Origin: Escherichia coli
GTDB lineage: Bacteria; Pseudomonadota; Gammaproteobacteria; Enterobacterales; Enterobacteriaceae
Reading direction: 5' to 3' (one strand)
DNA: 64,000 nucleotides
NCBI RefSeq assembly: GCF_013122565.1
Contig: NZ_CP053258.1
Part shown: positions 3,540 through 51,616 of the stretch, in pieces
Layout: each line of letters starts with the position of its first letter
Position numbering within the stretch: the stretch's first letter is position 1
Notes under the pieces: generated by a model
The model's input: only the letters and a program-made list of their open reading frames with translations
Told to the model about the DNA's origin: nothing
Database searches by the model: none
Position numbers and translations under genes: made by a program

Positions 3540-4901
3540 ATGTTTGATAATTTAACCGATCGTTTGTCGCGCACGCTGCGCAATATCAGTGGCCGTGGAC
3601 GCCTCACTGAAGACAACGTAAAAGATACGCTGCGCGAAGTGCGCATGGCGCTGCTGGAGGCGGACGTCGCTCTGCCGGTAGTGCGTGAGTTTATCAATCG
3701 CGTAAAAGAGAAAGCGGTTGGTCATGAAGTTAATAAGAGCCTGACGCCGGGGCAGGAGTTCGTCAAAATCGTCCGTAACGAACTGGTTGCGGCGATGGGC
3801 GAAGAGAACCAGACCCTGAACCTGGCGGCGCAACCGCCTGCGGTCGTGCTGATGGCGGGCCTGCAAGGTGCCGGTAAAACAACCAGCGTTGGTAAACTCG
3901 GTAAGTTCCTGCGCGAGAAGCACAAGAAGAAAGTGCTGGTGGTTTCTGCCGACGTTTATCGCCCGGCGGCAATCAAACAGCTTGAGACGCTGGCAGAGCA
4001 GGTGGGCGTTGATTTCTTCCCTTCTGATGTTGGTCAGAAGCCGGTAGATATCGTTAACGCGGCGCTGAAAGAAGCCAAACTGAAATTCTACGACGTGCTG
4101 CTGGTGGATACCGCCGGTCGTCTGCACGTTGACGAAGCGATGATGGACGAGATCAAACAAGTCCATGCGTCGATTAACCCGGTTGAAACCCTGTTTGTGG
4201 TTGACGCCATGACCGGTCAGGATGCGGCCAATACGGCAAAAGCATTCAATGAAGCGTTACCGCTTACCGGCGTAGTGTTGACCAAAGTGGACGGCGATGC
4301 CCGCGGCGGTGCGGCGCTCTCTATTCGTCACATCACTGGCAAACCGATCAAGTTCCTCGGTGTTGGCGAGAAAACTGAGGCGCTGGAGCCGTTCCATCCG
4401 GACCGCATCGCGTCGCGTATTCTCGGCATGGGCGACGTACTGTCGCTGATCGAAGATATCGAAAGCAAAGTTGACCGCGCGCAGGCAGAGAAATTAGCCA
4501 GCAAGCTGAAAAAAGGCGACGGCTTCGATCTCAACGATTTTCTTGAGCAACTGCGCCAGATGAAAAATATGGGCGGCATGGCTAGCCTGATGGGCAAGCT
4601 GCCGGGCATGGGGCAGATCCCGGATAACGTCAAGTCGCAGATGGACGATAAAGTGCTGGTGCGTATGGAGGCCATCATCAACTCGATGACGATGAAAGAG
4701 CGCGCTAAGCCAGAAATCATCAAAGGTTCGCGTAAGCGTCGTATCGCCGCTGGTTGCGGGATGCAGGTACAGGACGTTAACCGCCTTCTGAAGCAGTTCG
4801 ACGACATGCAGCGCATGATGAAGAAAATGAAGAAGGGCGGAATGGCGAAGATGATGAGAAGCATGAAAGGGATGATGCCGCCGGGATTTCCTGGTCGCTA
4901 A
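3540..4901 (+). CDS. ffh: signal recognition particle protein Ffh
   Basis: 453-aa ORF with GTPase motifs (GLQGAGKTT, DTAGR, TKVDG) and Met-rich C-terminal M domain. Confidence 0.97.
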   Translation: MFDNLTDRLSRTLRNISGRGRLTEDNVKDTLREVRMALLEADVALPVVREFINRVKEKAVGHEVNKSLTPGQEFVKIVRNELVAAMGEENQTLNLAAQPPAVVLMAGLQGAGKTTSVGKLGKFLREKHKKKVLVVSADVYRPAAIKQLETLAEQVGVDFFPSDVGQKPVDIVNAALKEAKLKFYDVLLVDTAGRLHVDEAMMDEIKQVHASINPVETLFVVDAMTGQDAANTAKAFNEALPLTGVVLTKVDGDARGGAALSIRHITGKPIKFLGVGEKTEALEPFHPDRIASRILGMGDVLSLIEDIESKVDRAQAEKLASKLKKGDGFDLNDFLEQLRQMKNMGGMASLMGKLPGMGQIPDNVKSQMDDKVLVRMEAIINSMTMKERAKPEIIKGSRKRRIAAGCGMQVQDVNRLLKQFDDMQRMMKKMKKGGMAKMMRSMKGMMPPGFPGR

Positions 4902-4914
4902 TCGGCCTGGCTTG

Positions 4915-5006
4915 TTTGCCATTTTGGCACCGGGGTGTGCTCGTCATCCTCACGTACTGCGTGTACGCTCCGGTGACTGCGCGCACTCCGGCACCAAACT
5001 GGCTGC
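4915..5006. repeat. GC-rich dispersed intergenic repeat (boxC-like); second copy at 61622..61714
   Basis: About 90 bp sharing long identical blocks with 61622..61714 (TTTGCCA, GTGCTCG, ATCCTCACGTAC, CGTGTACGCTC, CCAAACTG, CTGCA); by-eye alignment roughly 70-75% identical. Confidence 0.45.
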
Positions 5007-5071
5007 ACCGCCGACGGCCTTTTACAGCAGAGTTAGCAACTGTTGATTGCAATTTCCGCAAAAATGAGTAA

Positions 5072-5398
<327 letters not shown>

Positions 5399-5416
5399 TC
5401 TGTCACGGTGGTCATG

Positions 5417-5965
5417 ATGAGCAAACAACTCACCGCGCAAGCACCTGTTGATCCCATCGTTTTGGGAAAAATGGGTTCGTCTTACGGTATTCGTGGGTGG
5501 CTCAGAGTGTTTTCTTCCACCGAAGACGCCGAAAGCATTTTTGACTATCAGCCCTGGTTTATCCAGAAGGCGGGTCAGTGGCAGCAAGTCCAGCTGGAAA
5601 GCTGGAAGCACCACAATCAGGACATGATCATCAAGCTGAAAGGCATTGACGATCGTGATGCGGCGAACCTGCTGACGAATTGTGAAATTGTCGTGGATTC
5701 ATCGCAGCTGCCTCAGCTTGAAGAGGGGGACTACTACTGGAAAGACCTGATGGGCTGCCAGGTAGTAACCACTGAAGGCTACGATCTCGGTAAAGTCGTC
5801 GATATGATGGAAACCGGATCCAATGACGTTCTCGTCATTAAGGCAAACCTGAAAGATGCGTTTGGTATCAAGGAACGTCTCGTACCGTTCCTCGATGGGC
5901 AGGTTATCAAGAAAGTCGATCTCACTACTCGTTCAATCGAAGTAGATTGGGATCCTGGTTTTTAA
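5417..5965 (+). CDS. rimM: ribosome maturation factor RimM
   Basis: ORF track 5408..5965; ATG at 5417 gives [31 protein letters not shown]..., 182 aa. Confidence 0.92.
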
Positions 5966-5995
5966 ACCACCGGATAAACGGTAAAAGACGGCGCT

Positions 5996-6763
5996 ATGTG
6001 GATTGGCATAATTAGCCTGTTTCCTGAAATGTTCCGCGCAATTACCGATTACGGGGTAACTGGCCGGGCAGTTAAAAATGGCCTGCTGAGCATCCAGAGC
6101 TGGAGTCCTCGCGACTTCACGCATGACCGGCACCGTACCGTGGACGATCGTCCTTACGGCGGCGGACCGGGGATGTTAATGATGGTGCAACCCTTGCGGG
6201 ACGCCATTCATGCAGCAAAAGCCGCGGCGGGTGAAGGCGCAAAGGTGATTTATCTGTCACCACAGGGACGCAAGCTTGATCAAGCGGGCGTCAGCGAACT
6301 GGCAACGAATCAAAAATTGATTCTGGTGTGCGGTCGCTACGAAGGTATAGATGAGCGCGTGATCCAAACCGAAATTGACGAAGAATGGTCAATCGGCGAT
6401 TACGTTCTCAGTGGTGGTGAGTTACCAGCAATGACGCTGATTGACTCCGTTTCCCGGTTTATTCCGGGAGTACTGGGACATGAAGCCTCAGCAACAGAAG
6501 ATTCCTTTGCTGAAGGATTGCTGGATTGCCCGCACTATACGCGGCCTGAGGTGTTAGAAGGGATGGAAGTTCCGCCAGTGTTACTGTCGGGCAACCATGC
6601 CGAGATACGTCGCTGGCGTTTGAAACAGTCGCTGGGCCGTACCTGGCTTAGAAGACCTGAACTTCTGGAAAACCTGGCTCTGACTGAAGAGCAAGCAAGG
6701 TTGCTGGCGGAGTTCAAAACGGAACACGCACAACAGCAACATAAACATGATGGGATGGCGTAA
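5996..6763 (+). CDS. trmD: tRNA (guanine37-N1)-methyltransferase TrmD
   Basis: 255-aa [16 protein letters not shown]... recognised as TrmD; position in rpsP-rimM-trmD-rplS operon. Confidence 0.96.
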
Positions 6764-6801
6764 GCCCCCGAGATATCAGTTTACCCAGGATAAGAGATTA
6801 A

Positions 6802-7152
<351 letters not shown>

Positions 7153-7182
7153 GATTTCGCTTAAGCGACATCCTGTTAAGAA

Positions 7183-7211
7183 GGGCTGGCCAATTGGCTG
7201 GCCCTTTTTTT
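7183..7211 (+). terminator. rho-independent terminator of the rpsP operon
   Basis: 9-bp stem (GGGCTGGCC / GGCTGGCCC with two G-U pairs), AATT loop, followed by TTTTTTT. Confidence 0.55.
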
Positions 7212-7228
7212 ATCTGTTTGCTCGTGTT

Positions 7229-7711
7229 TTAAGGGGTAGTAATCACCACTGCGACGCGGCGGTTCTCGGCGCGGCCCTGGGCGGTCTTGTTACTGGCTAT
7301 GGGATATTTTTTTCCTAAACCCTGTGTGGTGAGATTGCTGCGCGGAATTTGTCCACCCTTAGCCCATGCATCGGCCACGACATTCGCCCGTTTCAATGAT
7401 AAGCCTTCGTTGTAACTGTCTTCACCATAGTTATCGGTGTGTCCATCCATACGGGCATGTGTTAGCCCTGTCGAGGCCAATTTGGCTGCCATGGTTTGGA
7501 TCTGTTGCTGGCTTTCCGGGAGCAATTTGTAGTCATTTTTGGCGAACAGAATGGCATCTGATAAGCCCAGCGACCAGTCGCCGGCGGATTCAGTAAATCC
7601 ATAAGATTGCATAGCGGCGACTTGCTCAGGAGTAAACTTTCCCTGAGGGGACTGGCAGCCAGTCAGTATTAGTGAGGTGAAAATCAGGGGTGCTACCAGG
7701 TGCTTTATCAT
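7229..7711 (-). CDS. yfiB: OmpA-family outer-membrane lipoprotein YfiB (activator of DgcN)
   Basis: 160-aa ORF with lipoprotein signal (LILTGC) and OmpA-like C-terminal peptidoglycan-binding region (NTDNYGEDSYNEGLSLKRA, AENRRV). Confidence 0.9.
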   Translation of the reverse strand: MIKHLVAPLIFTSLILTGCQSPQGKFTPEQVAAMQSYGFTESAGDWSLGLSDAILFAKNDYKLLPESQQQIQTMAAKLASTGLTHARMDGHTDNYGEDSYNEGLSLKRANVVADAWAKGGQIPRSNLTTQGLGKKYPIASNKTAQGRAENRRVAVVITTP

Positions 7712-7726
7712 ATCGATATATCCTTG

Positions 7727-8953
7727 TTATCTCACCAGCTTTTCGGCACGCTGGTGTTTGGCCTGATACATATTGTGATCGGCAAGCTCTTGTAATTTTT
7801 CCGCAGAGGCGTGCTCAATGGTCATCGCGTAACCAATGCTTAATGTCATGGTGGTCTGATAGCCATTATGAAGATCAAACGGGAGATTAAAGATTTGTGT
7901 CAGTGCTGAACATATCTGCTGCACTTCAGATTCCGACTGTACATCATAGAGCACCATAGCGAATTCATCGCCGCCTATGCGGTATGCTTTATGTCGCAGC
8001 CCGCCAAATTCAGCTAACCGTTTTGCGATTTCAATCAAGACTCGATCGCCCGTCGCATGACCCCAGGTATCATTGATATATTTGAAATTATCGCCATCAA
8101 GAAATAGTAACGCCGACGTTTTTCGGGCATCGGAACTGTTCATCAACGTGTTGATACCGCTACGAAACGCTGCGCGGTTAGCCAGCCCGGTTAATGGGTC
8201 ATGTAGTGCGGTACGTAGAAGCTGCGCATTTTTGGCCTGTAAACGAAGCTGCCACTCTTCCATTTCATCCAGCAGACTGTTGAAGTCGAGAGCGAATCGG
8301 TGAAACTCAGCGATACGTTCTTCCGAAACTCGTCGGGAAAAATTGCGGTTGGAACGCACATCATGTACGACATCGGTGATATTTTTCAGCGCTTCCACCA
8401 GGCCATTGTGCAAATGGCGGGTGAGGGTAATTGCGATGCCTGATGCCAGCAGAATACAACCGGTCAGTACGGCGAGCGAAAACCAGATAAAATGGCTGAT
8501 TGAACTGTCGCGAGCGGTTAAGCGTACTTCGCCAATGGTTTCACCATTGTGACGAATCGGCTGAATAATGGGGGCAGGGAAGAGCCAGTGGCTTATGAAA
8601 TTGCTGAAAGTATCGCCTGGATCCTTACGGGTGTAATGCCAGGATGCCAGAATATTTTGCTGCTTATCACGTACTTCTGCAGTTGAAAATTGCCCTTGCT
8701 GGCCCAGCGCTGCCAGTGTTTCAGTTGCTGCAGGGCCATCGGCAAAAACGACAGCTGCTTCCAGACTGTAAGTCATTGTTGCTGCTGTCAGTGCCAGGTT
8801 TTTTTGCGCGTACTGTTTCAGGGTCAGCACCGAGGTCACGGAAAGCAGCAACCAGATCAGCATCATAGTGATAAATATGCTGGTCATACTGATGTTGCGT
8901 AATGCTCTTTTAAACGTGGGGCGCTTATTAAGAGAATTATCGTTATCCATCAT
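7727..8953 (-). CDS. dgcN: membrane diguanylate cyclase DgcN (YfiN), GGDEF domain
   Basis: 408-aa ORF with N-terminal transmembrane/periplasmic region, HAMP-like segment and RIGGDEF motif. Confidence 0.92.
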
Positions 8954-9461
8954 TTTTCTTCCGTGCGAGCATTAAGACATCCGGGTTGACCTTTACACCG
9001 CTACGCGATAAGGCATCCAGGTTTACGGCAAATCTGACGTCATTATTGTGGATGATCAGACAAAAGGCGCTACCAATAATGCACTCGGTATTTTGTTCGG
9101 CAATTAATAATAACGCCTTTGACGGATATTGTTCGGTTAATTCCATCTGGAATGTCGGTGACTCGTTGCCAAAATAAAAACCATTGCAGCCTGAAATCAT
9201 CGCCTCTTGTTGAGTGTGAATGATGACAGGCAGATAAGGCAAAGATGTCGCGGCATTCTCTTGTAGGGCGGTACTAAAACGTGAAGATGAAAAGATACAT
9301 AACTTTGGTGGCCCTGATAGCGCAGGCCAGCGGGTGTAACTGACAATACCGGAAACCATCATACGCACGTTTTTCGCAACGTCAGAAGGCTCCTGAGCGA
9401 GTATTGGTGCTCCCGTCAGCAGGAGAATCAGAAGTAAGAACAGTCGGTGAGAAAAACGCAT
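8943..9461 (-). CDS. yfiR: periplasmic repressor of DgcN, YfiR
   Basis: 172-aa ORF with signal peptide ([23 protein letters not shown]); overlaps dgcN start by 11 nt. Confidence 0.9.
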
Positions 9462-9610
9462 TCAGGGATCCCCACCATCTTCGCTCGAAATGCATCGATA
9501 TTTTTTCAGAATGCTCATTAAAATATCATTTTTTCATGCGATCGTCATCAATGTGAGAAATAAAACACAATGAGTAAAATCTTATGTTTAATTTATTTGT
9601 GGGGTTTTAA

Positions 9611-9976
9611 TTAATTTAATCGTATTGTGCTGGCATTTTCATCAGTCCCTTTTTGCCAAACTTCATGCAGTTGGCTGGCATTTTCAACATTGTTACAGCT
9701 GGCAGGAAAGCTTTTACCGGAAAGTCCCCGGGCATAAGTAAAATCGGTCTGGCAAGTTTTCTTTTGTCCTTCGGCATATCCTTTAAGGTATAGACCGCGA
9801 TCCGCCTGTGAATCGCTAAATGCATCGTCATCTTTTATGGCGCTGCCCGATATCGCATCTTCCATACCGACATCATACCAGTCGGTGCTGGTCAAGGTTG
9901 GCGCGTGAGTATAAGGATCAATCTGACATCCGCTAACCAGTAAAGCCAACAAGGGGGCGATAAACTTTTTCATCAT
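9611..9976 (-). CDS. yfiL: lipoprotein YfiL (DUF2799)
   Basis: ORF track 9611..10015; internal ATG at 9976 gives MMKKFIAPLLALLVSGCQ... with a lipobox; about 121 aa. Confidence 0.8.
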   Translation of the reverse strand: MMKKFIAPLLALLVSGCQIDPYTHAPTLTSTDWYDVGMEDAISGSAIKDDDAFSDSQADRGLYLKGYAEGQKKTCQTDFTYARGLSGKSFPASCNNVENASQLHEVWQKGTDENASTIRLN

Positions 9977-10021
9977 TTCTTTCTCCTTTTTCAAAGCATA
10001 GCGGATTGTTTTCAAAGGGAG

Positions 10022-10091
10022 TGTAAATTTATCTATACAGAGGTAAGGGTTGAAAGCGCGACTAAATTGCCTGTGTAAATAAAAATGTACG
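10022..10091. promoter_or_regulatory. TyrR boxes in the aroF-tyrA promoter region
   Basis: TGTAAA-N6-TATACA at 10022-10039 and TGTAAA-N6-TGTACG at 10074-10091 match TyrR box consensus TGTAAA-N6-TTTACA; about 95 bp upstream of aroF. Confidence 0.5.
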
Positions 10092-10185
10092 AAATATGGA
10101 TTGAAAACTTTACTTTATGTGTTATCGTTACGTCATCCTCGCTGAGGATCAACTATCGCAAACGAGCATAAACAGGATCGCCATC

Positions 10186-11256
10186 ATGCAAAAAGACGCG
10201 CTGAATAACGTACATATTACCGACGAACAGGTTTTAATGACTCCGGAACAACTGAAGGCCGCTTTTCCATTGAGCCTGCAACAAGAAGCCCAGATTGCTG
10301 ACTCGCGTAAAAGCATTTCAGATATTATCGCCGGGCGCGATCCTCGTCTGCTGGTAGTATGTGGTCCTTGTTCCATTCATGATCCTGAAACTGCTCTGGA
10401 ATATGCTCGTCGATTTAAAGCCCTTGCCGCAGAGGTCAGCGATAGCCTCTATCTGGTAATGCGCGTCTATTTTGAAAAACCCCGTACCACTGTCGGCTGG
10501 AAAGGGTTAATTAACGATCCCCATATGGATGGCTCTTTTGATGTAGAAGCCGGGCTGCAGATCGCGCGTAAATTGCTGCTTGAGCTGGTGAATATGGGAC
10601 TGCCACTGGCGACGGAAGCGTTAGATCCGAATAGCCCGCAATACCTGGGCGATCTGTTTAGCTGGTCAGCAATTGGTGCTCGTACAACGGAATCGCAAAC
10701 TCACCGTGAAATGGCCTCCGGGCTTTCCATGCCGGTTGGTTTTAAAAACGGCACCGATGGCAGTCTGGCAACGGCAATTAACGCTATGCGCGCCGCCGCC
10801 CAGCCGCACCGTTTTGTTGGCATTAACCAGGCAGGGCAGGTTGCGTTGCTACAAACTCAGGGAAATCCGGACGGGCATGTGATCCTGCGTGGTGGTAAAG
10901 CGCCGAACTATAGCCCTGCGGATGTTGCGCAATGTGAAAAAGAGATGGAACAGGCGGGACTGCGCCCGTCTCTGATGGTAGATTGCAGCCACGGTAATTC
11001 CAATAAAGATTATCGCCGTCAGCCTGCGGTGGCAGAATCCGTGGTTGCTCAAATCAAAGATGGCAATCGCTCAATTATTGGTCTGATGATCGAAAGTAAT
11101 ATCCACGAGGGCAATCAGTCTTCCGAGCAACCGCGCAGTGAAATGAAATACGGTGTATCCGTAACCGATGCCTGCATTAGCTGGGAAATGACCGATGCCT
11201 TGCTGCGTGAAATTCACCAGGATCTGAACGGGCAGCTGACGGCTCGCGTGGCTTAA
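10186..11256 (+). CDS. aroF: DAHP synthase, Tyr-sensitive (AroF)
   Basis: ORF track 10117..11256; ATG at 10186 gives [23 protein letters not shown]..., 356 aa. Confidence 0.95.
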
Positions 11257-11266
11257 GAGGTTTATT

Positions 11267-12388
11267 ATGGTTGCTGAATTGACCGCATTACGCGATCAAA
11301 TTGATGAAGTCGATAAAGCGCTGCTGAATTTATTAGCGAAGCGTCTGGAACTGGTTGCTGAAGTGGGCGAGGTGAAAAGCCGCTTTGGACTGCCTATTTA
11401 TGTTCCGGAGCGCGAGGCATCTATGCTGGCCTCACGTCGTGCAGAGGCGGAAGCTCTGGGTGTACCGCCAGATCTGATTGAGGATGTTTTGCGTCGGGTG
11501 ATGCGTGAATCTTACTCCAGTGAAAACGACAAAGGATTTAAAACACTTTGTCCGTCACTGCGTCCGGTGGTTATCGTCGGTGGTGGCGGTCAGATGGGAC
11601 GTCTGTTCGAGAAGATGCTGATACTCTCGGGTTATCAGGTGCGGATTCTGGAGCAACATGACTGGGATCGAGCGGCTGATATTGTTGCCGATGCTGGAAT
11701 GGTGATTGTTAGTGTGCCCATTCATGTTACTGAGCAAGTTATCGGCAAATTACCGCCTTTACCGAAAGATTGTATTCTGGTTGATCTGGCATCAGTGAAA
11801 AATGGACCGTTACAGGCCATGCTGGCGGCGCACGATGGCCCGGTACTGGGGTTACACCCAATGTTCGGTCCGGACAGCGGTAGCCTGGCAAAGCAAGTTG
11901 TGGTCTGGTGTGATGGACGTAAGCCGGAAGCATACCAATGGTTTCTGGAGCAAATTCAGGTCTGGGGCGCTCGGCTGCATCGTATTAGCGCTGTCGAGCA
12001 CGATCAGAATATGGCGTTTATTCAGGCTCTGCGCCACTTTGCTACTTTTGCTTATGGGCTGCACCTGGCAGAAGAAAATGTTCAGCTTGAGCAACTTCTG
12101 GCGCTCTCTTCGCCGATTTACCGCCTTGAACTGGCGATGGTTGGGCGACTGTTTGCTCAGGATCCGCAGCTTTATGCCGACATTATTATGTCGTCAGAGC
12201 GTAATCTGGCGTTAATCAAACGTTACTATAAGCGTTTCGGCGAGGCGATTGAGTTGCTGGAGCAGGGCGATAAGCAGGCGTTTATTGACAGTTTCCGCAA
12301 GGTGGAGCACTGGTTCGGCGATTACGCACAGCGTTTTCAGAGTGAAAGCCGCGTGTTATTGCGTCAGGCGAATGACAACCGCCAGTAA
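11267..12388 (+). CDS. tyrA: bifunctional chorismate mutase / prephenate dehydrogenase (TyrA)
   Basis: 373-aa [29 protein letters not shown]... recognised as TyrA. Confidence 0.96.
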
Positions 12389-12396
12389 TAATCCAG

Positions 12397-12428
12397 TGCC
12401 GGGTGATTCACATCATCCGGCACCTTTT
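12397..12428. terminator. bidirectional terminator between convergent tyrA and pheA
   Basis: Inverted repeat GTGCCGG ... CCGGCAC (12397-12423) followed by CTTTTCA on plus strand. Confidence 0.5.
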
Positions 12429-12430
12429 CA

Positions 12431-13591
12431 TCAGGTTGGATCAACAGGCACTACGTTCTCACTTGGGTAACAGCCCAATACCTTCATCGAACGGGTGATG
12501 TCCCCTAACTCTTTCAATGCTTTTTGCATTTCCGCTGATTCAAGATTGGCCTGAATATCCAGATAAAACATCTCTTCCCATGGATTACCGTGAATCGGGC
12601 GTGACTCCAGACGGGTCATAATCAGATTGTGGTTGCGCAATACCAGCAATGCTTCAACCAGCGCACCAGCTTGTTGTCCGGTCGCCATTAACAACGTCGT
12701 TTTCGCCGGAACCTGGTCAGACACATTAATGGCTTTACGTGCCAACACCACAAATCGGGTGAAGTTTTGTCGCTGATTCGCTTCAATACGCTCCAGTACC
12801 TGCAAACCGTACAAAGTGCCGCCAGCTTCGCTTCCCAACGCAGCAACATGCGGTGATTTTGCCTGTGCAACCTTTTCCATTGCCGCAGACGTACTTTCGG
12901 TATATTCAATCTTCCAGTGCGGATAACGATTAAGGAATTTGCTGCATTGCTGGAATGGCTGCGGATGGCTGTAGACCGTATTAATGGTGGATAAATCAGT
13001 CGTGCCGGAGACCAACAAACAATGGTCGATAGTTAACGTCATCTCGCCAATAATCGACAAGCTGGTATGTTGCAGCAGATCGTAAACGTCGTTTATGGCA
13101 CCGGAGCTGGTATTTTCAATCGGTACGACGGCATAGTCGGCCTGGCCGGTTTCCACCTGATTAAAAATATCGGCAAATTTGGCGCAGCCACTTTCAATGA
13201 ATTGCTCAAAGTGACGGGCAGCATACTGGCGCGCCGCAAGATGGGAATAAGAACCTTTGGGGCCGAGAAAAGCGATGCGTGCTGAGTGCGGATTAATTTT
13301 ATTGAGATGTTGCTGGAGCAAAGCCTGCTGAGTTAATACGGAATCTTCAATGATGAGCTGGAACAGGCGAGTAATGTAATGGGCGTCCAGATGGTGCGCT
13401 TTACCGAGCGTAATTAATCTTTCCAGTAAATCGCGTTCACGATCAATATCACGTACCGGGCGATGCGAGAGCAGTTTGGCTTTTCCCACCTCGACGGCCA
13501 GTTCGCGCCGCTCTGCGAGTAATGCTAATAATTTTTCATCCAGCGCGCTGATTTTCTCTCGCAGCGCCAGTAACGGGTTTTCCGATGTCAT
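12431..13591 (-). CDS. pheA: bifunctional chorismate mutase / prephenate dehydratase (PheA)
   Basis: 386-aa [35 protein letters not shown]... recognised as PheA. Confidence 0.96.
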
Positions 13592-13624
13592 AGTGTTGCC
13601 TTTTTGTTATCAATAAAAAAGGCC

Positions 13625-13652
13625 CCCCGATTTGGGAGGCCTTATTGTTCGT
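13625..13652 (-). terminator. pheA attenuator terminator
   Basis: On minus strand AAGGCCTCCC-AAATC-GGGGGGCC followed by TTTTTT, between pheL stop (13690) and pheA start (13591). Confidence 0.65.
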
Positions 13653-13689
13653 CTTCGCATTCTGTTTCACACGACGAAACGCCTCCCAT

Positions 13690-13737
13690 TCAGGGGAAGG
13701 TAAAAAAGAATGCGAAGAAAAACGGTGTGTGTTTCAT
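13690..13737 (-). CDS. pheL: pheA operon leader peptide (15 aa, 7 Phe codons)
   Basis: Minus-strand ATG AAA CAC ACA CCG TTT TTC TTC GCA TTC TTT TTT ACC TTC CCC TGA = [15 protein letters not shown]. Below the ORF-track size cutoff. Confidence 0.8.
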   Translation of the reverse strand: [15 protein letters not shown]

Positions 13738-13790
13738 GTTTGTTTCCTTAAGTGACTTTAGTACAGTACCCGTACTGTTTTCACGCTGTC

Positions 13791-13817
13791 AACAAAAAAC
13801 GCGCCCGAAGGCGCGTT
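13791..13817 (-). terminator. raiA rho-independent terminator (overlaps pheL promoter -35 TTGACA)
   Basis: On minus strand AACGCGCC-TTCG-GGCGCGTT followed by TTTTTT, 24 bp after raiA stop. Confidence 0.5.
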
Positions 13818-13840
13818 GGCGATACACTCAATATAAAGGA

Positions 13841-14236
<396 letters not shown>

Positions 14237-14403
14237 TCAAAATGTGTGATGGAAATCTCATAATTTTGTCACTTTTTGTCAACGAATCTTTTTTGTGAGA
14301 AATCGCAGGAAGAGGTGTTTTTTTACTTGAGGAATATCTCAAAGCGAGCCATATTTGATGAGATCGATAGTGACTAAATCGCTTCAGTTTCACAACTAAC
14401 AGA

Positions 14404-14436
14404 ATAAAAAAACGGCAGCTCAAGGGCTGCCGTTTT
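14404..14436 (-). terminator. bamD rho-independent terminator
   Basis: On minus strand AAACGGCAGC-CCTTGA-GCTGCCGTTT followed by TTTTTTT. Confidence 0.55.
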
Positions 14437-14452
14437 GTGTTTCAGGTTTTTG

Positions 14453-15190
14453 TTATGTATTGCTGCGGTTTGCAGCGATGATTTTCGCTACTTTTTCAGC
14501 TTGCGCATTCATCTGCATCTGGCGGTATGCATTTTCCATCAGCGGCAGCGCATCACGCGTAGCTTGGGTATCCGGGTAGTCGCGCAACATGCCTTCTACG
14601 CGGTTAACGACGGCAACCCATGCGCCACGTTCTGTATAGTACTCGGCAACGGAGTATTCATATTTCGCCAGACGATCTTTCAGGAATACCAGACGTTTGG
14701 TGGCATCGGTGGTGTACTGACTGTTCGGATAGCCGCGCACCAGTTTGGAAAAGTCACTAAACGCAGCTCGTGCATGTTGAGGATCGCGATCGCTACGATC
14801 GACGCCAAAGAACCCTTGCAGCGCACTGTCATCCAGCGCCATATTGGTCAGGCCACGCATGTACATAACATAATCGATATTCGGATGGGTCGGGTTAAGG
14901 CGAATAAAACGATCGATGGCAGCCTGTGCTAACGGCAAATCGGCGTTTTTATAGTAGGCGTAGATGAGATCCAGCTGCACCTGCTGCGAATACGGACCAA
15001 ACGGATAGCGATTATCTAACGCTTCCAGTTGCGTTATTGCCTGTCTCCAGTTACCGTCCTGCAGCTTTTGTTGTGCAGTCGCGTAAATTTCATTTGGCGG
15101 ATTATCAGGTACTTCTTCCTTTGACCCCGAGCAACCCGCCAAAAACAGGCTTAGTGTGGCGGCTGCCACCAGATATTTCATGCGCGTCAT
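14453..15190 (-). CDS. bamD: outer membrane protein assembly factor BamD (YfiO), TPR lipoprotein
   Basis: 245-aa [29 protein letters not shown]... with lipobox. Confidence 0.95.
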
Positions 15191-15324
15191 GACGTTTTGA
15201 CTTTCCTCAAAATGTAATACGGGAGATTCTCTGTTCCTGCTCCCGGTTAAGACCAGCTACAATAGCACACTATATTAAACGGCAAAGCCGTAAAACCCCA
15301 ACGATAAACGAAGAAGCAGTATAT

Positions 15325-16305
15325 ATGGCACAACGAGTACAGCTCACTGCAACGGTGTCCGAAAACCAACTCGGTCAACGCTTAGATCAGGCTTTGGCCG
15401 AAATGTTCCCGGATTATTCACGTTCGCGGATAAAAGAATGGATCCTCGACCAGCGCGTGCTGGTTAACGGCAAAGTTTGTGATAAGCCGAAAGAAAAAGT
15501 ATTGGGTGGCGAGCAGGTTGCCATCAACGCTGAGATTGAAGAAGAAGCGCGTTTTGAACCGCAGGATATCCCGCTGGATATCGTCTATGAAGATGAAGAC
15601 ATTATTATCATTAATAAACCGCGCGACCTGGTGGTACATCCTGGCGCGGGTAACCCGGATGGCACGGTACTGAATGCGTTGCTTCATTACTATCCACCCA
15701 TTGCCGATGTACCGCGTGCGGGCATCGTCCATCGTCTGGATAAAGACACCACTGGCCTGATGGTTGTGGCAAAAACCGTTCCGGCTCAGACGCGTTTAGT
15801 CGAATCTTTGCAACGGCGTGAAATTACTCGTGAGTATGAAGCGGTGGCGATTGGTCATATGACCGCAGGTGGCACGGTGGATGAGCCAATCAGTCGCCAC
15901 CCGACCAAACGTACTCACATGGCGGTGCATCCGATGGGCAAACCAGCGGTGACTCACTATCGCATCATGGAACACTTCCGTGTGCACACGCGTCTGCGGT
16001 TGCGTCTGGAAACTGGACGTACGCACCAGATCCGCGTGCATATGGCCCATATCACTCATCCGCTGGTGGGCGATCCGGTTTATGGTGGCCGTCCGCGTCC
16101 GCCAAAAGGTGCTTCGGAAGCGTTTATCTCCACGCTGCGTAAGTTTGACCGCCAGGCGCTTCATGCAACCATGCTGCGTCTTTATCACCCGATCTCCGGC
16201 ATCGAAATGGAATGGCATGCGCCTATTCCACAAGATATGGTGGAGCTGATTGAGGTGATGCGCGCCGATTTCGAAGAGCATAAGGATGAAGTGGACTGGT
16301 TATGA
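15325..16305 (+). CDS. rluD: 23S rRNA pseudouridine(1911/1915/1917) synthase RluD
   Basis: 326-aa ORF with S4 domain and pseudouridine synthase motif (HRLDKDTTGLMVVAK). Confidence 0.95.
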   Translation: MAQRVQLTATVSENQLGQRLDQALAEMFPDYSRSRIKEWILDQRVLVNGKVCDKPKEKVLGGEQVAINAEIEEEARFEPQDIPLDIVYEDEDIIIINKPRDLVVHPGAGNPDGTVLNALLHYYPPIADVPRAGIVHRLDKDTTGLMVVAKTVPAQTRLVESLQRREITREYEAVAIGHMTAGGTVDEPISRHPTKRTHMAVHPMGKPAVTHYRIMEHFRVHTRLRLRLETGRTHQIRVHMAHITHPLVGDPVYGGRPRPPKGASEAFISTLRKFDRQALHATMLRLYHPISGIEMEWHAPIPQDMVELIEVMRADFEEHKDEVDWL

Positions 16306-17033
16306 GTAAGCTGATTGTCCCGCAGTGGCCGCTGCCAAAAGGTGTTGCGGCCTGTAGCTCTACTCGTATCGGCGGCGTGAGCTTGCCCCCGTATGACTCG
16401 CTCAACCTCGGTGCTCATTGTGGCGATAATCCGGATCACGTTGAGGAGAATCGCAAGCGACTTTTTGCTGCGGGCAATTTGCCTTCTAAACCGGTCTGGC
16501 TTGAGCAGGTACACGGCAAAGATGTGCTTAAGCTTACTGGCGAACCTTATGCCTCAAAACGAGCAGATGCCTCTTATAGCAATACGCCCGGCACGGTTTG
16601 CGCAGTGATGACTGCCGACTGCCTCCCTGTGCTGTTTTGCAATCGAGCGGGAACGGAAGTCGCCGCCGCTCATGCTGGTTGGCGTGGACTGTGCGCAGGC
16701 GTGCTGGAAGAGACGGTTTCCTGTTTTGCTGATAATCCGGAAAATATTCTCGCCTGGTTAGGGCCGGCAATTGGTCCACGCGCGTTCGAAGTGGGGGCGG
16801 AGGTTCGCGAGGCGTTTATGGCAGCAGACGCCAAAGCGAGTACAGCTTTCATTCAGCATGGTGATAAGTATCTGGCAGATATTTATCAGCTTGCCCGGCA
16901 GCGTCTGGCGAGCGTTGGTGTTGAACAAATTTTCGGCGGCGACCGTTGTACATATACGGAAAATGAGACTTTCTTCTCTTATCGTCGCGACAAGACCACC
17001 GGTCGTATGGCAAGTTTCATTTGGCTGATATAA
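16302..17033 (+). CDS. pgeF: YfiH/PgeF family protein (purine nucleoside phosphorylase / laccase-like)
   Basis: 243-aa ORF; start overlaps rluD stop (ATGA). Confidence 0.9.
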   Translation: MSKLIVPQWPLPKGVAACSSTRIGGVSLPPYDSLNLGAHCGDNPDHVEENRKRLFAAGNLPSKPVWLEQVHGKDVLKLTGEPYASKRADASYSNTPGTVCAVMTADCLPVLFCNRAGTEVAAAHAGWRGLCAGVLEETVSCFADNPENILAWLGPAIGPRAFEVGAEVREAFMAADAKASTAFIQHGDKYLADIYQLARQRLASVGVEQIFGGDRCTYTENETFFSYRRDKTTGRMASFIWLI

Positions 17034-17095
17034 CCTAAAGAATCAAGACGATCCGGTACGCGTGATTTTCTTTTCACATTAATCTGGTCAATAAC

Positions 17096-17124
17096 CTTGA
17101 ATAATTGAGGGATGACCTCATTTA
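17096..17124 (+). promoter_or_regulatory. sigma32 heat-shock promoter of clpB
   Basis: CTTGAAT (17096-17102) and CCTCATTTA (17116-17124), 13-bp spacer, about 40 bp upstream of clpB ATG. Confidence 0.5.
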
Positions 17125-17162
17125 ATCTCCAGTAGCAACTTTGATCCGTTATGGGAGGAGTT

Positions 17163-19736
17163 ATGCGTCTGGATCGTCTTACTAATAAATTCCAGCTTGC
17201 TCTTGCCGATGCCCAATCACTTGCACTCGGGCACGACAACCAATTCATCGAACCACTTCATTTAATGAGCGCCCTGCTGAATCAGGAAGGGGGTTCGGTT
17301 AGTCCTTTGTTAACATCCGCTGGCATTAATGCTGGCCAGTTGCGCACAGATATCAATCAGGCATTAAATCGTTTACCGCAGGTTGAAGGTACTGGTGGTG
17401 ATGTCCAGCCATCACAAGATCTGGTGCGCGTTCTTAATCTTTGCGACAAGCTGGCGCAAAAACGTGGTGATAACTTTATCTCGTCAGAACTGTTCGTTCT
17501 GGCGGCACTTGAGTCTCGCGGCACGCTGGCCGACATCCTGAAAGCAGCAGGGGCGACCACCGCCAACATTACTCAAGCGATTGAACAAATGCGTGGAGGT
17601 GAAAGCGTGAACGATCAAGGTGCTGAAGACCAACGTCAGGCTTTGAAAAAATATACCATCGACCTTACCGAACGAGCCGAACAAGGCAAACTCGATCCGG
17701 TGATTGGTCGTGATGAAGAAATTCGCCGTACCATTCAGGTGCTGCAACGTCGTACTAAAAATAACCCGGTACTGATTGGTGAACCCGGCGTCGGTAAAAC
17801 TGCCATCGTTGAAGGTCTGGCGCAGCGTATTATCAACGGCGAAGTGCCGGAAGGGTTGAAAGGCCGCCGGGTACTGGCGCTGGATATGGGCGCGCTGGTG
17901 GCTGGGGCGAAATATCGCGGTGAGTTTGAAGAACGTTTAAAAGGCGTGCTTAACGATCTTGCCAAACAGGAAGGCAACGTCATCCTGTTTATCGACGAAT
18001 TACATACCATGGTCGGCGCGGGTAAAGCCGATGGCGCAATGGACGCCGGAAACATGCTGAAACCGGCGCTGGCGCGTGGTGAATTGCACTGCGTAGGTGC
18101 CACGACGCTTGACGAATATCGCCAGTACATCGAAAAAGATGCTGCGCTGGAACGTCGTTTCCAGAAAGTGTTTGTTGCCGAGCCTTCTGTTGAAGATACC
18201 ATTGCGATTCTGCGTGGCCTGAAAGAACGTTACGAATTGCACCACCATGTGCAAATTACTGACCCGGCAATTGTTGCAGCGGCGACGTTGTCTCATCGCT
18301 ACATTGCTGACCGTCAGCTGCCGGATAAAGCCATCGACCTGATCGATGAAGCAGCATCCAGCATTCGTATGCAGATTGACTCAAAACCAGAAGAACTCGA
18401 CCGACTCGATCGTCGTATCATCCAGCTCAAACTGGAACAACAGGCGTTAATGAAAGAGTCTGATGAAGCCAGTAAAAAACGCCTGGATATGCTCAACGAA
18501 GAACTGAGCGACAAAGAACGTCAGTACTCCGAGTTAGAAGAAGAGTGGAAAGCAGAGAAGGCATCGCTTTCTGGTACGCAGACCATTAAAGCGGAACTGG
18601 AACAGGCGAAAATCGCTATTGAACAGGCTCGCCGTGTGGGTGACCTGGCGCGGATGTCTGAACTGCAATACGGCAAAATCCCGGAACTGGAAAAGCAACT
18701 GGAAGCCGCAACGCAGCTCGAAGGCAAAACTATGCGTCTGTTGCGTAATAAAGTGACCGACGCCGAAATTGCTGAAGTGCTGGCGCGTTGGACGGGGATT
18801 CCGGTTTCTCGCATGATGGAAAGCGAGCGCGAAAAACTGCTGCGTATGGAGCAAGAACTGCACCATCGCGTAATTGGTCAGAACGAAGCGGTTGATGCGG
18901 TATCTAACGCTATTCGTCGTAGCCGTGCGGGGCTGGCGGATCCAAATCGCCCGATTGGTTCATTCCTGTTCCTCGGCCCAACTGGTGTGGGGAAAACAGA
19001 GCTTTGTAAGGCGCTGGCGAACTTTATGTTTGATAGCGACGAGGCGATGGTCCGTATCGATATGTCCGAGTTTATGGAGAAACACTCGGTGTCTCGTCTG
19101 GTTGGTGCGCCTCCGGGATATGTCGGTTATGAAGAAGGTGGCTACCTGACCGAAGCTGTGCGTCGTCGTCCGTATTCCGTCATCCTGCTGGATGAAGTGG
19201 AAAAAGCGCATCCGGATGTCTTCAATATTCTGTTGCAGGTACTGGATGATGGGCGTCTGACTGACGGGCAGGGGAGAACGGTCGACTTCCGTAATACGGT
19301 TGTCATTATGACCTCTAACCTCGGTTCCGATCTGATTCAGGAACGCTTCGGTGAACTGGATTATGCGCACATGAAAGAGCTGGTGCTCGGTGTGGTTAGC
19401 CATAACTTCCGTCCGGAATTCATTAACCGTATCGATGAAGTGGTGGTCTTCCATCCGCTGGGTGAACAGCACATTGCGTCGATTGCGCAGATTCAATTGA
19501 AACGTCTGTATAAACGTCTGGAAGAACGTGGTTATGAAATCCACATTTCTGACGAGGCGCTGAAACTGCTGAGCGAGAACGGTTACGATCCGGTCTATGG
19601 TGCACGTCCTCTGAAACGTGCAATTCAGCAGCAGATCGAAAACCCGCTGGCACAGCAAATACTGTCTGGTGAATTGGTTCCGGGTAAAGTGATTCGCCTG
19701 GAAGTTAATGAAGACCGGATTGTCGCCGTCCAGTAA
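17163..19736 (+). CDS. clpB: AAA+ disaggregase chaperone ClpB
   Basis: ORF track 17151..19736; ATG at 17163 after GGGAGGAG gives [19 protein letters not shown]..., 857 aa; two Walker A sites ([16 protein letters not shown]). Confidence 0.96.
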
Positions 19737-19741
19737 ATGAT

Positions 19742-19770
19742 AAAACGAGCCCTTCGGGGCTCGTTTTTGT
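19742..19770 (+). terminator. clpB rho-independent terminator
   Basis: AACGAGCCC-TTCG-GGGCTCGTT followed by TTTT, 6 bp after clpB stop. Confidence 0.65.
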
Positions 19771-19851
19771 CTATAAGTTAGACGGAAAAGACTATATTTA
19801 AGATGTTTTGCCTGAAAAGTAAGCGAACGATAAAGTTTTTATATTTTTCGC

Positions 19852-19879
19852 TTGTCAGGCCGGAATAACTCCCTATAAT
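19852..19879 (+). promoter_or_regulatory. rrnG promoter P1 (-35 TTGTCA, -10 TATAAT) with AT-rich UP element upstream
   Basis: TTGTCA 19852-19857, 16-bp spacer, TATAAT 19874-19879; AT-rich AAAGTTTTTATATTTTTCG immediately upstream; about 300 bp before 16S. Confidence 0.6.
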
Positions 19880-19970
19880 GCGCCACCACTGACACGGAAC
19901 AACGGCAAACACGCCGCCGGGTCAGCGGGGTTCTCCTGAGAATTCCGGCAGAGAAAGCAAAAATAAATGC

Positions 19971-19998
19971 TTGACTCTGTAGCGGGAAAGCGTATTAT
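19971..19998 (+). promoter_or_regulatory. rrnG promoter P2 (-35 TTGACT, -10 TATTAT)
   Basis: TTGACT 19971-19976, 16-bp spacer, TATTAT 19993-19998, about 120 bp downstream of P1. Confidence 0.6.
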
Positions 19999-20035
19999 GC
20001 ACACCCCGCGCCGCTGAGAAAAAGCGAAGCGGCAC

Positions 20036-20048
20036 TGCTCTTTAACAA
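20036..20048 (+). promoter_or_regulatory. rrn leader boxA antitermination element
   Basis: TGCTCTTTAACAA matches rrn boxA consensus, located in leader between P2 and 16S. Confidence 0.55.
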
Positions 20049-20179
20049 TTTATCAGACAATCTGTGTGGGCACTCGAAGATACGGATTCTTAACGTCGCA
20101 AGACGAAAAATGAATACCAAGTCTCAAGAGTGAACACGTAATTCATTACGAAGTTTAATTCTTTGAGCATCAAACTTTT

Positions 20180-21721
<1,542 letters not shown>

Positions 21722-21806
21722 CCTTAAAGAAGCGTTCTTTGAAGTGCTCACACAGATTGTCTGATAGAAAGTGAAAAGCAAGGCGTCTTGCGAAGCAGAC
21801 TGATAC

Positions 21807-21882
21807 GTCCCCTTCGTCTAGAGGCCCAGGACACCGCCCTTTCACGGCGGTAACAGGGGTTCGAATCCCCTAGGGGACGCCA
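21807..21882 (+). tRNA. gltW: tRNA-Glu (anticodon UUC) in the 16S-23S spacer
   Basis: GTCCCCTTCGTCTAGAGGCCCAGGACACCGCCCTTTCACGGCGGTAACAGGGGTTCGAATCCCCTAGGGGACGCCA, 76 nt ending CCA. Confidence 0.95.
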
Positions 21883-22066
21883 CTTGCTGGTTTGTGAGTG
21901 AAAGTCACCTGCCTTAATATCTCAAAACTCATCTTCGGGTGATGTTTGAGATATTTGCTCTTTAAAAATCTGGATCAAGCTGAAAATTGAAACACTGAAC
22001 AACGAATGTTGTTCGTGAGTCTCTCAAATTTTCGCAACTCTGAAGTGAAACATCTTCGGGTTGTGA

Positions 22067-24970
<2,904 letters not shown>

Positions 24971-43931: not shown

Positions 43932-44128
43932 TTTCACTGGCTTTGTTGCATTTTGCATAACAAATGCGAGGACGTTTCCAGATACCACAATCCATACGGT
44001 ATGAACATTTCCTCGCCTCAATGTTGTAGTGTAGAATGCGGCGTTTCTATTAATACAGACGTTAAGCTCAGAACAGCGACTTCTAAAAGCCTGGTTAACC
44101 GGGCATTAAGGCACAATAATCATACTTT

Positions 44129-45928
<1,800 letters not shown>

Positions 45929-45943
45929 CCCTTAGGAGTTGGC

Positions 45944-46918
45944 ATGGCGAATATGTTTGCCCTGATTCTGGTGATTGCCACACTGGTGACGGGCATTTTA
46001 TGGTGCGTGGATAAATTCTTTTTCGCACCTAAACGGCGGGAACGTCAGGCAGCGGCGCAGGCGGCTGCCGGGGACTCACTGGATAAAGCAACGTTGAAAA
46101 AGGTTGCGCCGAAGCCTGGCTGGCTGGAAACCGGTGCTTCTGTATTTCCGGTGCTGGCTATCGTATTGATTGTGCGTTCGTTTATTTATGAACCGTTCCA
46201 GATCCCGTCAGGTTCGATGATGCCGACTCTGTTAATCGGTGATTTTATTCTGGTAGAGAAGTTTGCTTATGGCATTAAAGATCCTATCTACCAGAAAACG
46301 CTGATCGAAACCGGTCATCCTAAACGCGGCGATATCGTGGTCTTTAAATATCCGGAAGATCCAAAGCTTGATTACATCAAGCGCGCGGTTGGTTTACCAG
46401 GCGATAAAGTCACTTATGATCCGGTCTCAAAAGAGCTGACGATTCAACCGGGATGCAGTTCCGGCCAGGCATGTGAAAACGCGCTGCCGGTCACCTACTC
46501 AAACGTGGAACCGAGCGATTTCGTTCAGACCTTCTCACGCCGTAATGGTGGGGAAGCGACCAGCGGATTCTTTGAAGTGCCGAAAAACGAAACCAAAGAA
46601 AATGGAATTCGTCTTTCCGAGCGTAAAGAGACACTGGGTGATGTGACGCACCGAATTCTGACAGTGCCGATTGCGCAGGACCAGGTGGGGATGTATTACC
46701 AGCAGCCAGGGCAACAACTGGCAACCTGGATTGTTCCGCCGGGACAATACTTCATGATGGGCGACAACCGCGACAACAGCGCGGACAGCCGTTACTGGGG
46801 CTTTGTGCCGGAAGCGAATCTGGTCGGTCGGGCAACGGCTATCTGGATGAGCTTCGATAAGCAAGAAGGCGAATGGCCGACTGGTCTGCGCTTAAGTCGC
46901 ATTGGCGGCATCCATTAA
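45944..46918 (+). CDS. lepB: signal peptidase I
   Basis: 324-aa ORF MANMFALILVIATLVTGILWCVDKFFFAPK... with catalytic SGSMMPTL motif. Confidence 0.96.
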   Translation: MANMFALILVIATLVTGILWCVDKFFFAPKRRERQAAAQAAAGDSLDKATLKKVAPKPGWLETGASVFPVLAIVLIVRSFIYEPFQIPSGSMMPTLLIGDFILVEKFAYGIKDPIYQKTLIETGHPKRGDIVVFKYPEDPKLDYIKRAVGLPGDKVTYDPVSKELTIQPGCSSGQACENALPVTYSNVEPSDFVQTFSRRNGGEATSGFFEVPKNETKENGIRLSERKETLGDVTHRILTVPIAQDQVGMYYQQPGQQLATWIVPPGQYFMMGDNRDNSADSRYWGFVPEANLVGRATAIWMSFDKQEGEWPTGLRLSRIGGIH

Positions 46919-46930
46919 TAGCCATCTTCG

Positions 46931-46970
46931 TTCACGTTGTCGCCGTTATGGCGACAACGTGAATTATTTA
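46931..46970 (+). terminator. perfect 14-bp hairpin after lepB (probable lepA-lepB terminator)
   Basis: TTCACGTTGTCGCC-GTTAT-GGCGACAACGTGAA followed by TTATTTA. Confidence 0.5.
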
Positions 46971-47062
46971 TGAGATAAATCTCCCGTGGCTAACGACATC
47001 CCCCGTCGTTGTGTATAGAATATTCCCCCGAAGTTTAAGGTTGGCACCTCCAGGTTGCCACG

Positions 47063-47156
47063 GCACACGAAACAGCGTTGGTCCCCATATACCGGTAAAC
47101 TGAAACTGCAGCGAAGCAGTTAGCAGAACCATGTATATCAGGTCTGTTTCGTGTGC
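47063..47156 (+). promoter_or_regulatory. rnc 5' leader stem-loop (candidate RNase III autoregulatory processing site)
   Basis: GCACACGAAACAG (47063-47075) pairs with CTGTTTCGTGTGC (47144-47156), a 13-bp long-range stem enclosing about 68 nt, just upstream of rnc ATG at 47190. Confidence 0.5.
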
Positions 47157-47159
47157 TGA

Positions 47160-48772
<1,613 letters not shown>

Positions 48773-48783
48773 GAGTCACTCCG

Positions 48784-49512
48784 ATGGAAGGCTGGCAGCG
48801 CGCATTTGTCCTGCATAGTCGCCCGTGGAGCGAAACCAGCCTGATGCTGGACGTCTTCACGGAGGAATCGGGTCGCGTGCGTCTGGTTGCCAAAGGCGCA
48901 CGCTCTAAACGCTCTACTCTGAAAGGTGCATTACAGCCTTTCACCCCTCTCTTGCTACGTTTCGGCGGGCGTGGTGAAGTCAAAACGCTGCGCAGTGCTG
49001 AAGCTGTCTCGCTGGCGCTGCCATTAAGCGGTATCACGCTTTACAGCGGTCTGTACATCAACGAACTTCTCTCCCGCGTACTGGAATACGAGACGCGCTT
49101 CTCTGAACTCTTTTTCGATTACTTACATTGCATTCAGTCTCTGGCCGGTGCCACTGGTACGCCAGAACCCGCGCTGCGCCGCTTTGAACTGGCACTGCTC
49201 GGGCATCTGGGCTATGGCGTCAATTTTACCCATTGTGCGGGTAGCGGCGAGCCGGTAGATGACACCATGACGTATCGTTATCGCGAAGAAAAAGGGTTTA
49301 TCGCAAGCGTCGTTATCGACAATAAAACGTTCACCGGAAGGCAGTTAAAAGCGTTAAACGCGCGGGAATTTCCTGACGCAGACACACTACGCGCCGCGAA
49401 ACGCTTTACCCGCATGGCGCTTAAGCCGTATCTTGGCGGTAAACCATTAAAGAGCAGGGAACTGTTCCGGCAGTTTATGCCTAAGCGAACGGTGAAAACA
49501 CATTATGAATGA
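48784..49512 (+). CDS. recO: DNA repair protein RecO
   Basis: 242-aa [43 protein letters not shown]... Confidence 0.95.
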
Positions 49513-49523
49513 TGAGGATTGTC

Positions 49524-50255
49524 ATGGCTGAATTACTGTTAGGCGTCAACATTGACCATATTGCAACGCTGCGTAACGCACGCGGTACTGCTTACCCGGA
49601 TCCGGTGCAGGCGGCGTTTATTGCTGAGCAGGCGGGAGCAGACGGCATTACCGTGCATTTACGTGAAGATCGCCGCCACATTACTGACCGCGATGTGCGC
49701 ATCCTGCGTCAGACGCTGGATACCCGCATGAATCTGGAGATGGCAGTGACCGAAGAGATGCTGGCGATCGCCGTTGAGACGAAGCCACATTTTTGCTGCC
49801 TGGTACCGGAAAAGCGTCAGGAAGTCACGACCGAAGGCGGCCTGGACGTCGCAGGGCAGCGTGACAAAATGCGAGATGCCTGCAAACGTCTGGCGGATGC
49901 CGGGATTCAGGTTTCTCTGTTTATCGACGCCGATGAAGAGCAGATCAAAGCTGCGGCAGAGGTTGGCGCACCGTTTATCGAGATCCACACTGGTTGCTAT
50001 GCTGATGCCAAAACTGACGCCGAACAGGCGCAAGAGCTGGCGCGTATCGCCAAAGCCGCGACCTTTGCCGCTAGTCTCGGTCTGAAAGTTAACGCTGGTC
50101 ACGGTCTGACCTATCACAACGTGAAAGCCATTGCCGCCATTCCTGAGATGCACGAACTGAATATCGGTCATGCCATTATTGGTCGTGCAGTGATGACCGG
50201 ACTGAAAGATGCGGTGGCAGAAATGAAGCGTCTGATGCTGGAAGCGCGTGGCTAA
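49524..50255 (+). CDS. pdxJ: pyridoxine 5'-phosphate synthase
   Basis: ORF track 49509..50255; ATG at 49524 gives [27 protein letters not shown]..., 243 aa. Confidence 0.95.
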
Positions 50256-50635
50256 TGGCAATATTAGGTTTAGGTACGGATATTGTGGAGATCGCTCGCA
50301 TAGAAGCGGTGATCGCCCGATCCGGTGATCGCCTGGCACGCCGCGTATTAAGCGATAACGAATGGGCAATCTGGAAAACGCACCACCAGCCGGTGCGTTT
50401 TCTGGCGAAGCGTTTTGCTGTGAAAGAAGCGGCGGCAAAAGCGTTTGGCACCGGGATCCGCAATGGTCTGGCGTTTAATCAATTTGAAGTATTCAATGAT
50501 GAGCTCGGCAAACCACGGCTACGGCTATGGGGGGAGGCATTAAAACTGGCGGAAAAGCTCGGCGTTGTAAATATGCATGTAACGCTGGCAGATGAACGCC
50601 ACTATGCTTGTGCCACGGTAATTATTGAAAGTTAA
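50255..50635 (+). CDS. acpS: holo-[acyl-carrier-protein] synthase
   Basis: 126-aa [35 protein letters not shown]...; start overlaps pdxJ stop by 1 nt. Confidence 0.95.
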
Positions 50636-50654
50636 AAAAATACCGTTCTCTTTA

Positions 50655-50730
50655 TAAAGTAAAACCCCCGAACTGGTAAGGAACGGGGGTTTTACTTTAT
50701 TTTGTGCAGCACGCACCCTCAATGAGGATA
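50655..50730 (-). ncRNA. ohsC: candidate OhsC antitoxin sRNA (antisense regulator of shoB); boundaries approximate
   Basis: Minus-strand RNA from about 50725 to the terminator at 50661-50693 would carry the complement of 50704-50725, which is a near-copy of 50951-50972 in the shoB 5' UTR (19/22 identical; two differences become G-U pairs). Candidate -10 CATAAT (plus 50731-50736) and -35 TTGTAA (plus 50755-50760) on minus strand. Confidence 0.45.
50661..50699. terminator. bidirectional rho-independent terminator (acpS operon on plus strand; likely also ohsC on minus strand)
   Basis: AAAACCCCCG-13-nt loop-CGGGGGTTTT, flanked by T-runs on both strands. Confidence 0.6.
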
Positions 50731-51126: not shown

Positions 51127-51319
51127 CACAAGGAAACGTACTTAAGGTGCGTCCGGTGAACCAGTCGGACGCGCCTTTAATAACTATAAATAAGTGTCTG
51201 GGCAGATACTATATAAATTAACTTAGTGAATGATTATGCCAATGTCATCAATCAAAAAAATATAATAGCGTTAAGGTTTCTCTATAAAATAATTAACACT
51301 CTACATCCAGAGTAGAATA

Positions 51320-51616
<297 letters not shown>

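Follow-up and report, generated by a model that had tools for sequence, protein, structure and literature searches.

In a pheL/trpL-type attenuator the ribosome on the leader senses the supply of Phe-tRNA, and the kinetics of leader translation constitute the sensing step. The ribosome on the 15-codon pheL leader would gauge this supply at seven Phe codons. With plentiful Phe-tRNA it would finish fast, the helix between segments 1 and 2 and the terminator hairpin with its U-run would form, and transcription would stop before pheA. A ribosome stalled on the Phe codons would instead mask segment 1; a GGGAGGC segment would then engage the terminator's 5' arm in the antiterminator, letting RNA polymerase continue into pheA.

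The closest described systems are pheL of E. coli K-12 MG1655 (b2598, NP_417089.1 / WP_010723158.1, 'phe operon leader peptide'), the Thr4 pheL of other E. coli (WP_001386991.1; Nissle 1917, 536, ATCC 11775 and O157:H7) and, at the level of the family, the Phe leader element Rfam RF01859 and the group-1 enterobacterial pheL that ends in CCC_UGA (Gurvich et al., 2011; PMC3082878). A +1 frameshift occurs in pheL at UUC_CCC_UGA, for which the stimulator is the last three codons together with a 2-fold effect of Pro at position -10, and not codon 4 (PMC3082878). This frameshifting is reported to be without influence on pheA expression (PMC3082878). Among enterobacteria, pheL varies at positions other than its start codon, its Phe codons and UUC_CCC_UGA (Gurvich et al., PMC3082878).

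The locus studied here lies in a 64,000-nt stretch of DNA, which is referred to as the window. The pheL element is found immediately upstream of pheA and in the same orientation, with the gene order of MG1655, and has the following parts and neighbors:

12431..13591, minus strand: pheA, chorismate mutase / prephenate dehydratase, 386 aa, the gene regulated by the leader (Pfam CM_2 and PDT on the exact protein)
13613..13738, minus strand: Phe leader RNA element, Rfam RF01859 (Phe_leader), a full-length covariance-model match
13613..13643, minus strand: intrinsic terminator (attenuator) between the leader ORF and pheA, with a 10-pair stem at 13643-13619 and then a U-run to 13613
13647..13723, minus strand: long helix of segment 1 (the Phe-codon region) with segment 2, from the Rfam consensus structure and the ViennaRNA minimum free energy (MFE) fold
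13681..13687, minus strand: GGGAGGC segment, the predicted antiterminator arm, which can pair with the terminator 5' arm GCCUCCC at 13640-13634
13690..13737, minus strand: pheL leader ORF, 15 codons plus TGA, ending UUC_CCC_UGA, read from the sequence and translated
13726..13728, minus strand: pheL codon 4, ACA (Thr), with the polymorphic base at 13727 (C here, T in K-12, where the codon is ATA, Ile)
13745..13749, minus strand: putative Shine-Dalgarno-like AAGGA upstream of the pheL ATG at a spacing of 7 nt, read from the sequence
13787..13792, minus strand: TTGACA, the -35 hexamer of the pheL-pheA promoter, read from the sequence
13798..13817, minus strand: hairpin terminating raiA / the raiZ sRNA, immediately 5' of the phe promoter, after the MG1655 raiZ annotation

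Read on the minus strand from 13737 to 13690, the ORF is ATG AAA CAC ACA CCG TTT TTC TTC GCA TTC TTT TTT ACC TTC CCC TGA. Seven of its 15 codons encode Phe (codons 6-8, 10-12 and 14, arranged FFF-A-FFF-T-F), where at least five, some of them adjacent, are expected of such a leader ORF. The end of the ORF (...ACC TTC CCC TGA) and the Pro at -10 (codon 5, CCG) are those of the group-1 pheL (Gurvich et al., 2011), and the match to RF01859 spans model positions 1-125 of 125 and scores 132.2 bits (E = 9.4e-25), where the gathering threshold is 55. The conserved structure, UUC_CCC_UGA and Pro(-10) are all shared with RF01859 and group 1, and we saw no difference of note. The TTGACA hexamer is where the primer of a published phe-promoter reporter starts (PMC3082878). 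A consensus promoter scan upstream of pheL gave no sigma-70 site above thresholds; the -10 element was not placed and only the -35 hexamer is reported. In RefSeq this exact sequence is entered as pheL (WP_001386991.1, 'pheA operon leader peptide PheL'), and a literature search with either exact PheL peptide string (Thr4 or Ile4) found no papers.

The comparison with K-12 comes down to a single base. Translation of pheL from MG1655 (NC_000913.3, 2737599-2737646) gives ATA (Ile) at codon 4, one base apart from the ACA (Thr) of the window, while the 15-codon ORF, the seven Phe codons and the UUC_CCC_UGA end are shared. The promoter -35 and the helices are identical as well, and the terminator forming the attenuator is so base for base. 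In a 401-nt pairwise alignment with MG1655, the interval bounded by the raiA stop and the pheA start differs at position 13727 alone (one difference from K-12 in the 249 nt of the raiA-pheA intergenic region, 13592-13840), and the next differences past it are third-codon-position changes within pheA. An earlier sequence-only reading of this DNA had reported ACA at codon 4, given the K-12 peptide as having Ile (ATA), and described a single T/C missense difference outside the seven Phe codons. All three statements hold, by minus-strand translation of 13737-13690, by translation of MG1655 b2598 and by the pairwise alignment, respectively. The same reading had placed an intact attenuator hairpin at 13625-13652; the hairpin is indeed intact, being identical to that of MG1655, but its coordinates have to be corrected to a stem at 13643-13619 with a U-run to 13613.

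It had further suggested that the DNA either is not verbatim MG1655 or carries a base-call difference. As to the former, the window is colinear with MG1655 2,687,261-2,751,335 (reverse strand) and differs from it at 1,046 of the 64,000 positions (1.6%), so it is no verbatim copy. At 1,046 differences per 64 kb about 0.8 would be expected in the 48-nt pheL ORF, and one SNP there therefore needs no special explanation. None of 5,426 complete E. coli genomes exceeds 99.0% identity over window positions 4000-24000 or 98.6% over 44000-64000, and E. albertii and E. whittamii are about 92% identical. The window appears to come from a rarely sampled lineage within the species E. coli, possibly a Shigella-like one or a minor phylogroup. 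We also observed that the window carries many private alleles, and that its alignment to MG1655 breaks at 21786-21807, in the rrnG 16S-23S spacer beside gltW, where about 107 nt in MG1655 stand against about 20 nt in a variant rRNA spacer.

To count the two codon-4 alleles we searched the 5,426 complete E. coli genomes by megablast with SNP-centred 41-mers, using an exact word of 28 nt, which bars seeding by the opposite allele:

ACA (Thr), RefSeq WP_001386991.1: 3,994 of 5,426 complete genomes (74%)
ATA (Ile), RefSeq WP_010723158.1: 1,398 of 5,426 complete genomes (26%)
Neither 41-mer: 34 of 5,426 complete genomes

The 34 genomes matching neither 41-mer presumably differ at further bases close to the SNP or have another allele at codon 4. 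As many carriers of ATA are laboratory K-12 derivatives (MG1655, W3110, Keio, Dam/Dcm and others), its frequency in nature must be below 26%. Both ACA and ATA are common among wild isolates. Over 301 bp around pheL, from the 3' end of raiA to the 5' end of pheA, about 40% of the genomes sampled at even spacing from the 5,425 matching complete ones agree with the window at every base, Nissle 1917, 536, ATCC 11775 and O157:H7 included, whereas K-12 strains show 99.7% identity with one mismatch. The element itself does not differ from that of Thr4-allele E. coli; in the genome flanking it in the window, the divergence from every one of the 5,426 complete genomes amounts to at least 1%. As separate observations, the raiA-pheA regulatory region is much more conserved than the flanking genes, and one genome in the E. 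coli collection lacks the pheL region entirely.

The polarity of the change was taken from related species. We scanned one genome per GTDB species with a pattern made up of ATG AAR NNN NNN and conserved codons for the remaining 11 residues, which returned 108 loci. Representatives of E. coli, E. fergusonii and Salmonella are missing from these 108, although ATCC 11775 is identical to the window at pheL, and the scan or the collection thus seems incomplete for them. The four Escherichia representatives that were returned read at codon 4:

E. albertii: ACT (Thr)
E. whittamii: ACG (Thr)
Escherichia sp. E1V33: ACG (Thr)
Escherichia sp. MOD1-EC7003: ACA (Thr), with the whole ORF identical to that of the window

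Since all four have Thr, Thr is best regarded as ancestral and the ATA of K-12 as a derived C-to-T change. ATA at codon 4 was found in none of the 108 enterobacterial species returned by the scan. These species have 26 different peptides, and for position 4 they use eight residues and 21 codons, a diversity that shows position 4 to be free yet is not comparable with other positions, as the pattern fixed all residues except 3 and 4. Judged by these peptides, residues 3 and 4 of pheL vary freely among the 108 species. An unrelated observation from the scan is an enterobacterial group-1 pheL on CACSKA010000005.1, a contig assigned to Chryseobacterium sp. 18061; this assembly is probably mislabelled or contaminated.

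Together, the allele counts and the species scan turn around the framing in which Thr is a departure from a K-12 norm: Thr/ACA is the majority state (3,994 against 1,398 genomes) and the ancestral one, and it is K-12 that deviates. The check that the sequence-only reading had proposed, an alignment with MG1655 and other E. coli pheL sequences, gave one difference, at 13727, and found ACA in most E. coli, yet the K-12 peptide given there was correct.

The same data bear on the second of its suggestions, a base-call difference, in which case faulty sequencing or assembly would have produced the C at 13727 in a pheL that is really K-12-like (ATA). Nothing specific speaks for an error beyond the fact that this is a single-base difference in a short ORF, whereas the identical ACA 41-mer in 3,994 complete genomes, Thr in the sister Escherichia species and the 1,045 other differences of the window from K-12 all speak against one. 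An independent assembly points the same way. An exact-protein lookup with the PurL and PheA of the window returned only Logan contigs. Those of SRR11451224 agree with the window at 100% identity over 7,888 and 4,161 nt, pheL with ACA included, and no other 100% match was found. This agreement makes a base-call error very unlikely, and given all of the above we regard the chance of one as vanishingly small. ACA likewise occurs in two further runs, which encode the identical PheA protein and match the window at about 98.5% of nucleotides.

K-12 and its relatives carry a derived C-to-T change at codon 4 that probably spread by descent and recombination. Alternatively, codon 4 could be a mutational hotspot at which ATA has arisen recurrently on unrelated backgrounds (homoplasy) rather than once. 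What prompts this idea is EcN_Sk, a genome of the size of Nissle 1917 that has ATA, whereas Nissle 1917 itself has ACA. Over the aligned 10 kb, however, EcN_Sk departs from MG1655 at 7 positions and from Nissle 1917 at 182, and TB354, another ATA carrier, shows 3 differences from MG1655 over 10 kb. Around clpB-pheA-aroF, with the ATA pheL included, EcN_Sk (NZ_CP172017.1, 1-10041, equivalent to window positions of about 10,050-18,750) is K-12-like over at least about 8.7 kb, and it returns to Nissle-like sequence near aroF/yfiL, at a window-equivalent position of about 10,050. From the 7 against 182 differences and from this switch near 10,050 it follows that the ATA allele of EcN_Sk came with the K-12-like block. 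We consequently rejected recurrent mutation in EcN_Sk, the whole surrounding block being K-12-like, and hold a hotspot to be extremely improbable in general. The block itself suggests transduction, engineering or an assembly artefact. As far as the sequences go, the data fit a single origin of ATA and its spread by descent and recombination.

We then asked what codon 4 might mean for attenuation. In the RF01859 model, base 13727 corresponds to position 12. This unpaired column, with a weakly conserved 'u' as its consensus, belongs to the 5' part of the model, and pairing starts 4 nt further downstream, at 13723. When the 148-nt leader was folded with ViennaRNA, the ACA and ATA alleles shared both the MFE structure (-51.7 kcal/mol) and the centroid, namely the helix of segments 1 and 2 (13723-13647) followed by the terminator. 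A structural effect of the SNP was thus rejected, as neither the MFE nor the centroid structure changes between the alleles. When 13699-13613 was folded without segment 1, which mimics a ribosome stalled on the Phe codons, GGGAGGC was predicted to pair with GCCUCCC (-36.8 kcal/mol), a fold sensitive to the boundary of the construct, since a slightly shorter construct gives the terminator instead. Phe-dependent transcription termination in vivo would be expected for the window's leader, as a single unpaired base is all that separates it from the K-12 attenuator. The expectation voiced earlier that attenuation is unaffected by the substitution finds support, in that the site is predicted to be unpaired, the two alleles fold alike and residue 4 is variable across species.

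There remains the kinetics of translation. The rare AUA codon is decoded by the minor tRNA-Ile2. In 43 neighboring MG1655 genes only two sense codons are rarer than ATA, which is used 3.7 times per thousand codons, while ACA, with 6.5 per thousand, is about twice as common, so that a small kinetic difference in early leader translation between ATA and ACA is conceivable. On such grounds Thr/Ile might be functionally significant, with the decoding of codon 4 or the nascent residue 4 shifting the timing of the leading ribosome and thereby altering pheA attenuation or the +1 frameshift at UUC_CCC_UGA. Besides the codon frequencies, it is in keeping with this proposal that pheL translation kinetics are the established sensing step. 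Nascent-peptide effects on pheL frameshifting also exist (PMC3082878). Yet wild-type frameshifting needs just the last three codons and the 2-fold contribution of Pro(-10), and frameshifting is reported to have left pheA expression unaffected (PMC3082878). The site of codon 4 is moreover unpaired in identically folding alleles, residue 4 takes eight identities and 21 codons among the 108 species, and both alleles are common in wild isolates, and we therefore consider a functional role of the polymorphism very unlikely. A specific form of it carries an equally slim chance, namely that the derived Ile4 (AUA) of K-12 slows the first leader ribosome enough to shift basal pheA read-through. If this were true, the textbook phe attenuator would have been characterized on a minority allele, and the Thr4 of the window would represent the true wild-type setting.

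The Thr/Ile difference is best explained as neutral or near-neutral, because codon 4 lies upstream of all paired segments and outside the sensing codons, and we infer that it has no regulatory effect. We are accordingly highly confident that the window contains the ordinary pheL-pheA attenuator of non-K-12 E. coli, with the common ancestral Thr4 (ACA) leader and a neutral or near-neutral difference at codon 4.

In summary, the Thr4 pheL is a known and annotated allele, the majority and ancestral one in E. coli, and not an anomaly, and the polymorphism at codon 4 is almost certainly neutral. Its biological weight is very little: it marks the window as belonging to a non-K-12 E. coli lineage with the species' majority pheL allele. 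The K-12 reference is not always the species consensus, and population data should be consulted before a departure from MG1655 is called an anomaly.
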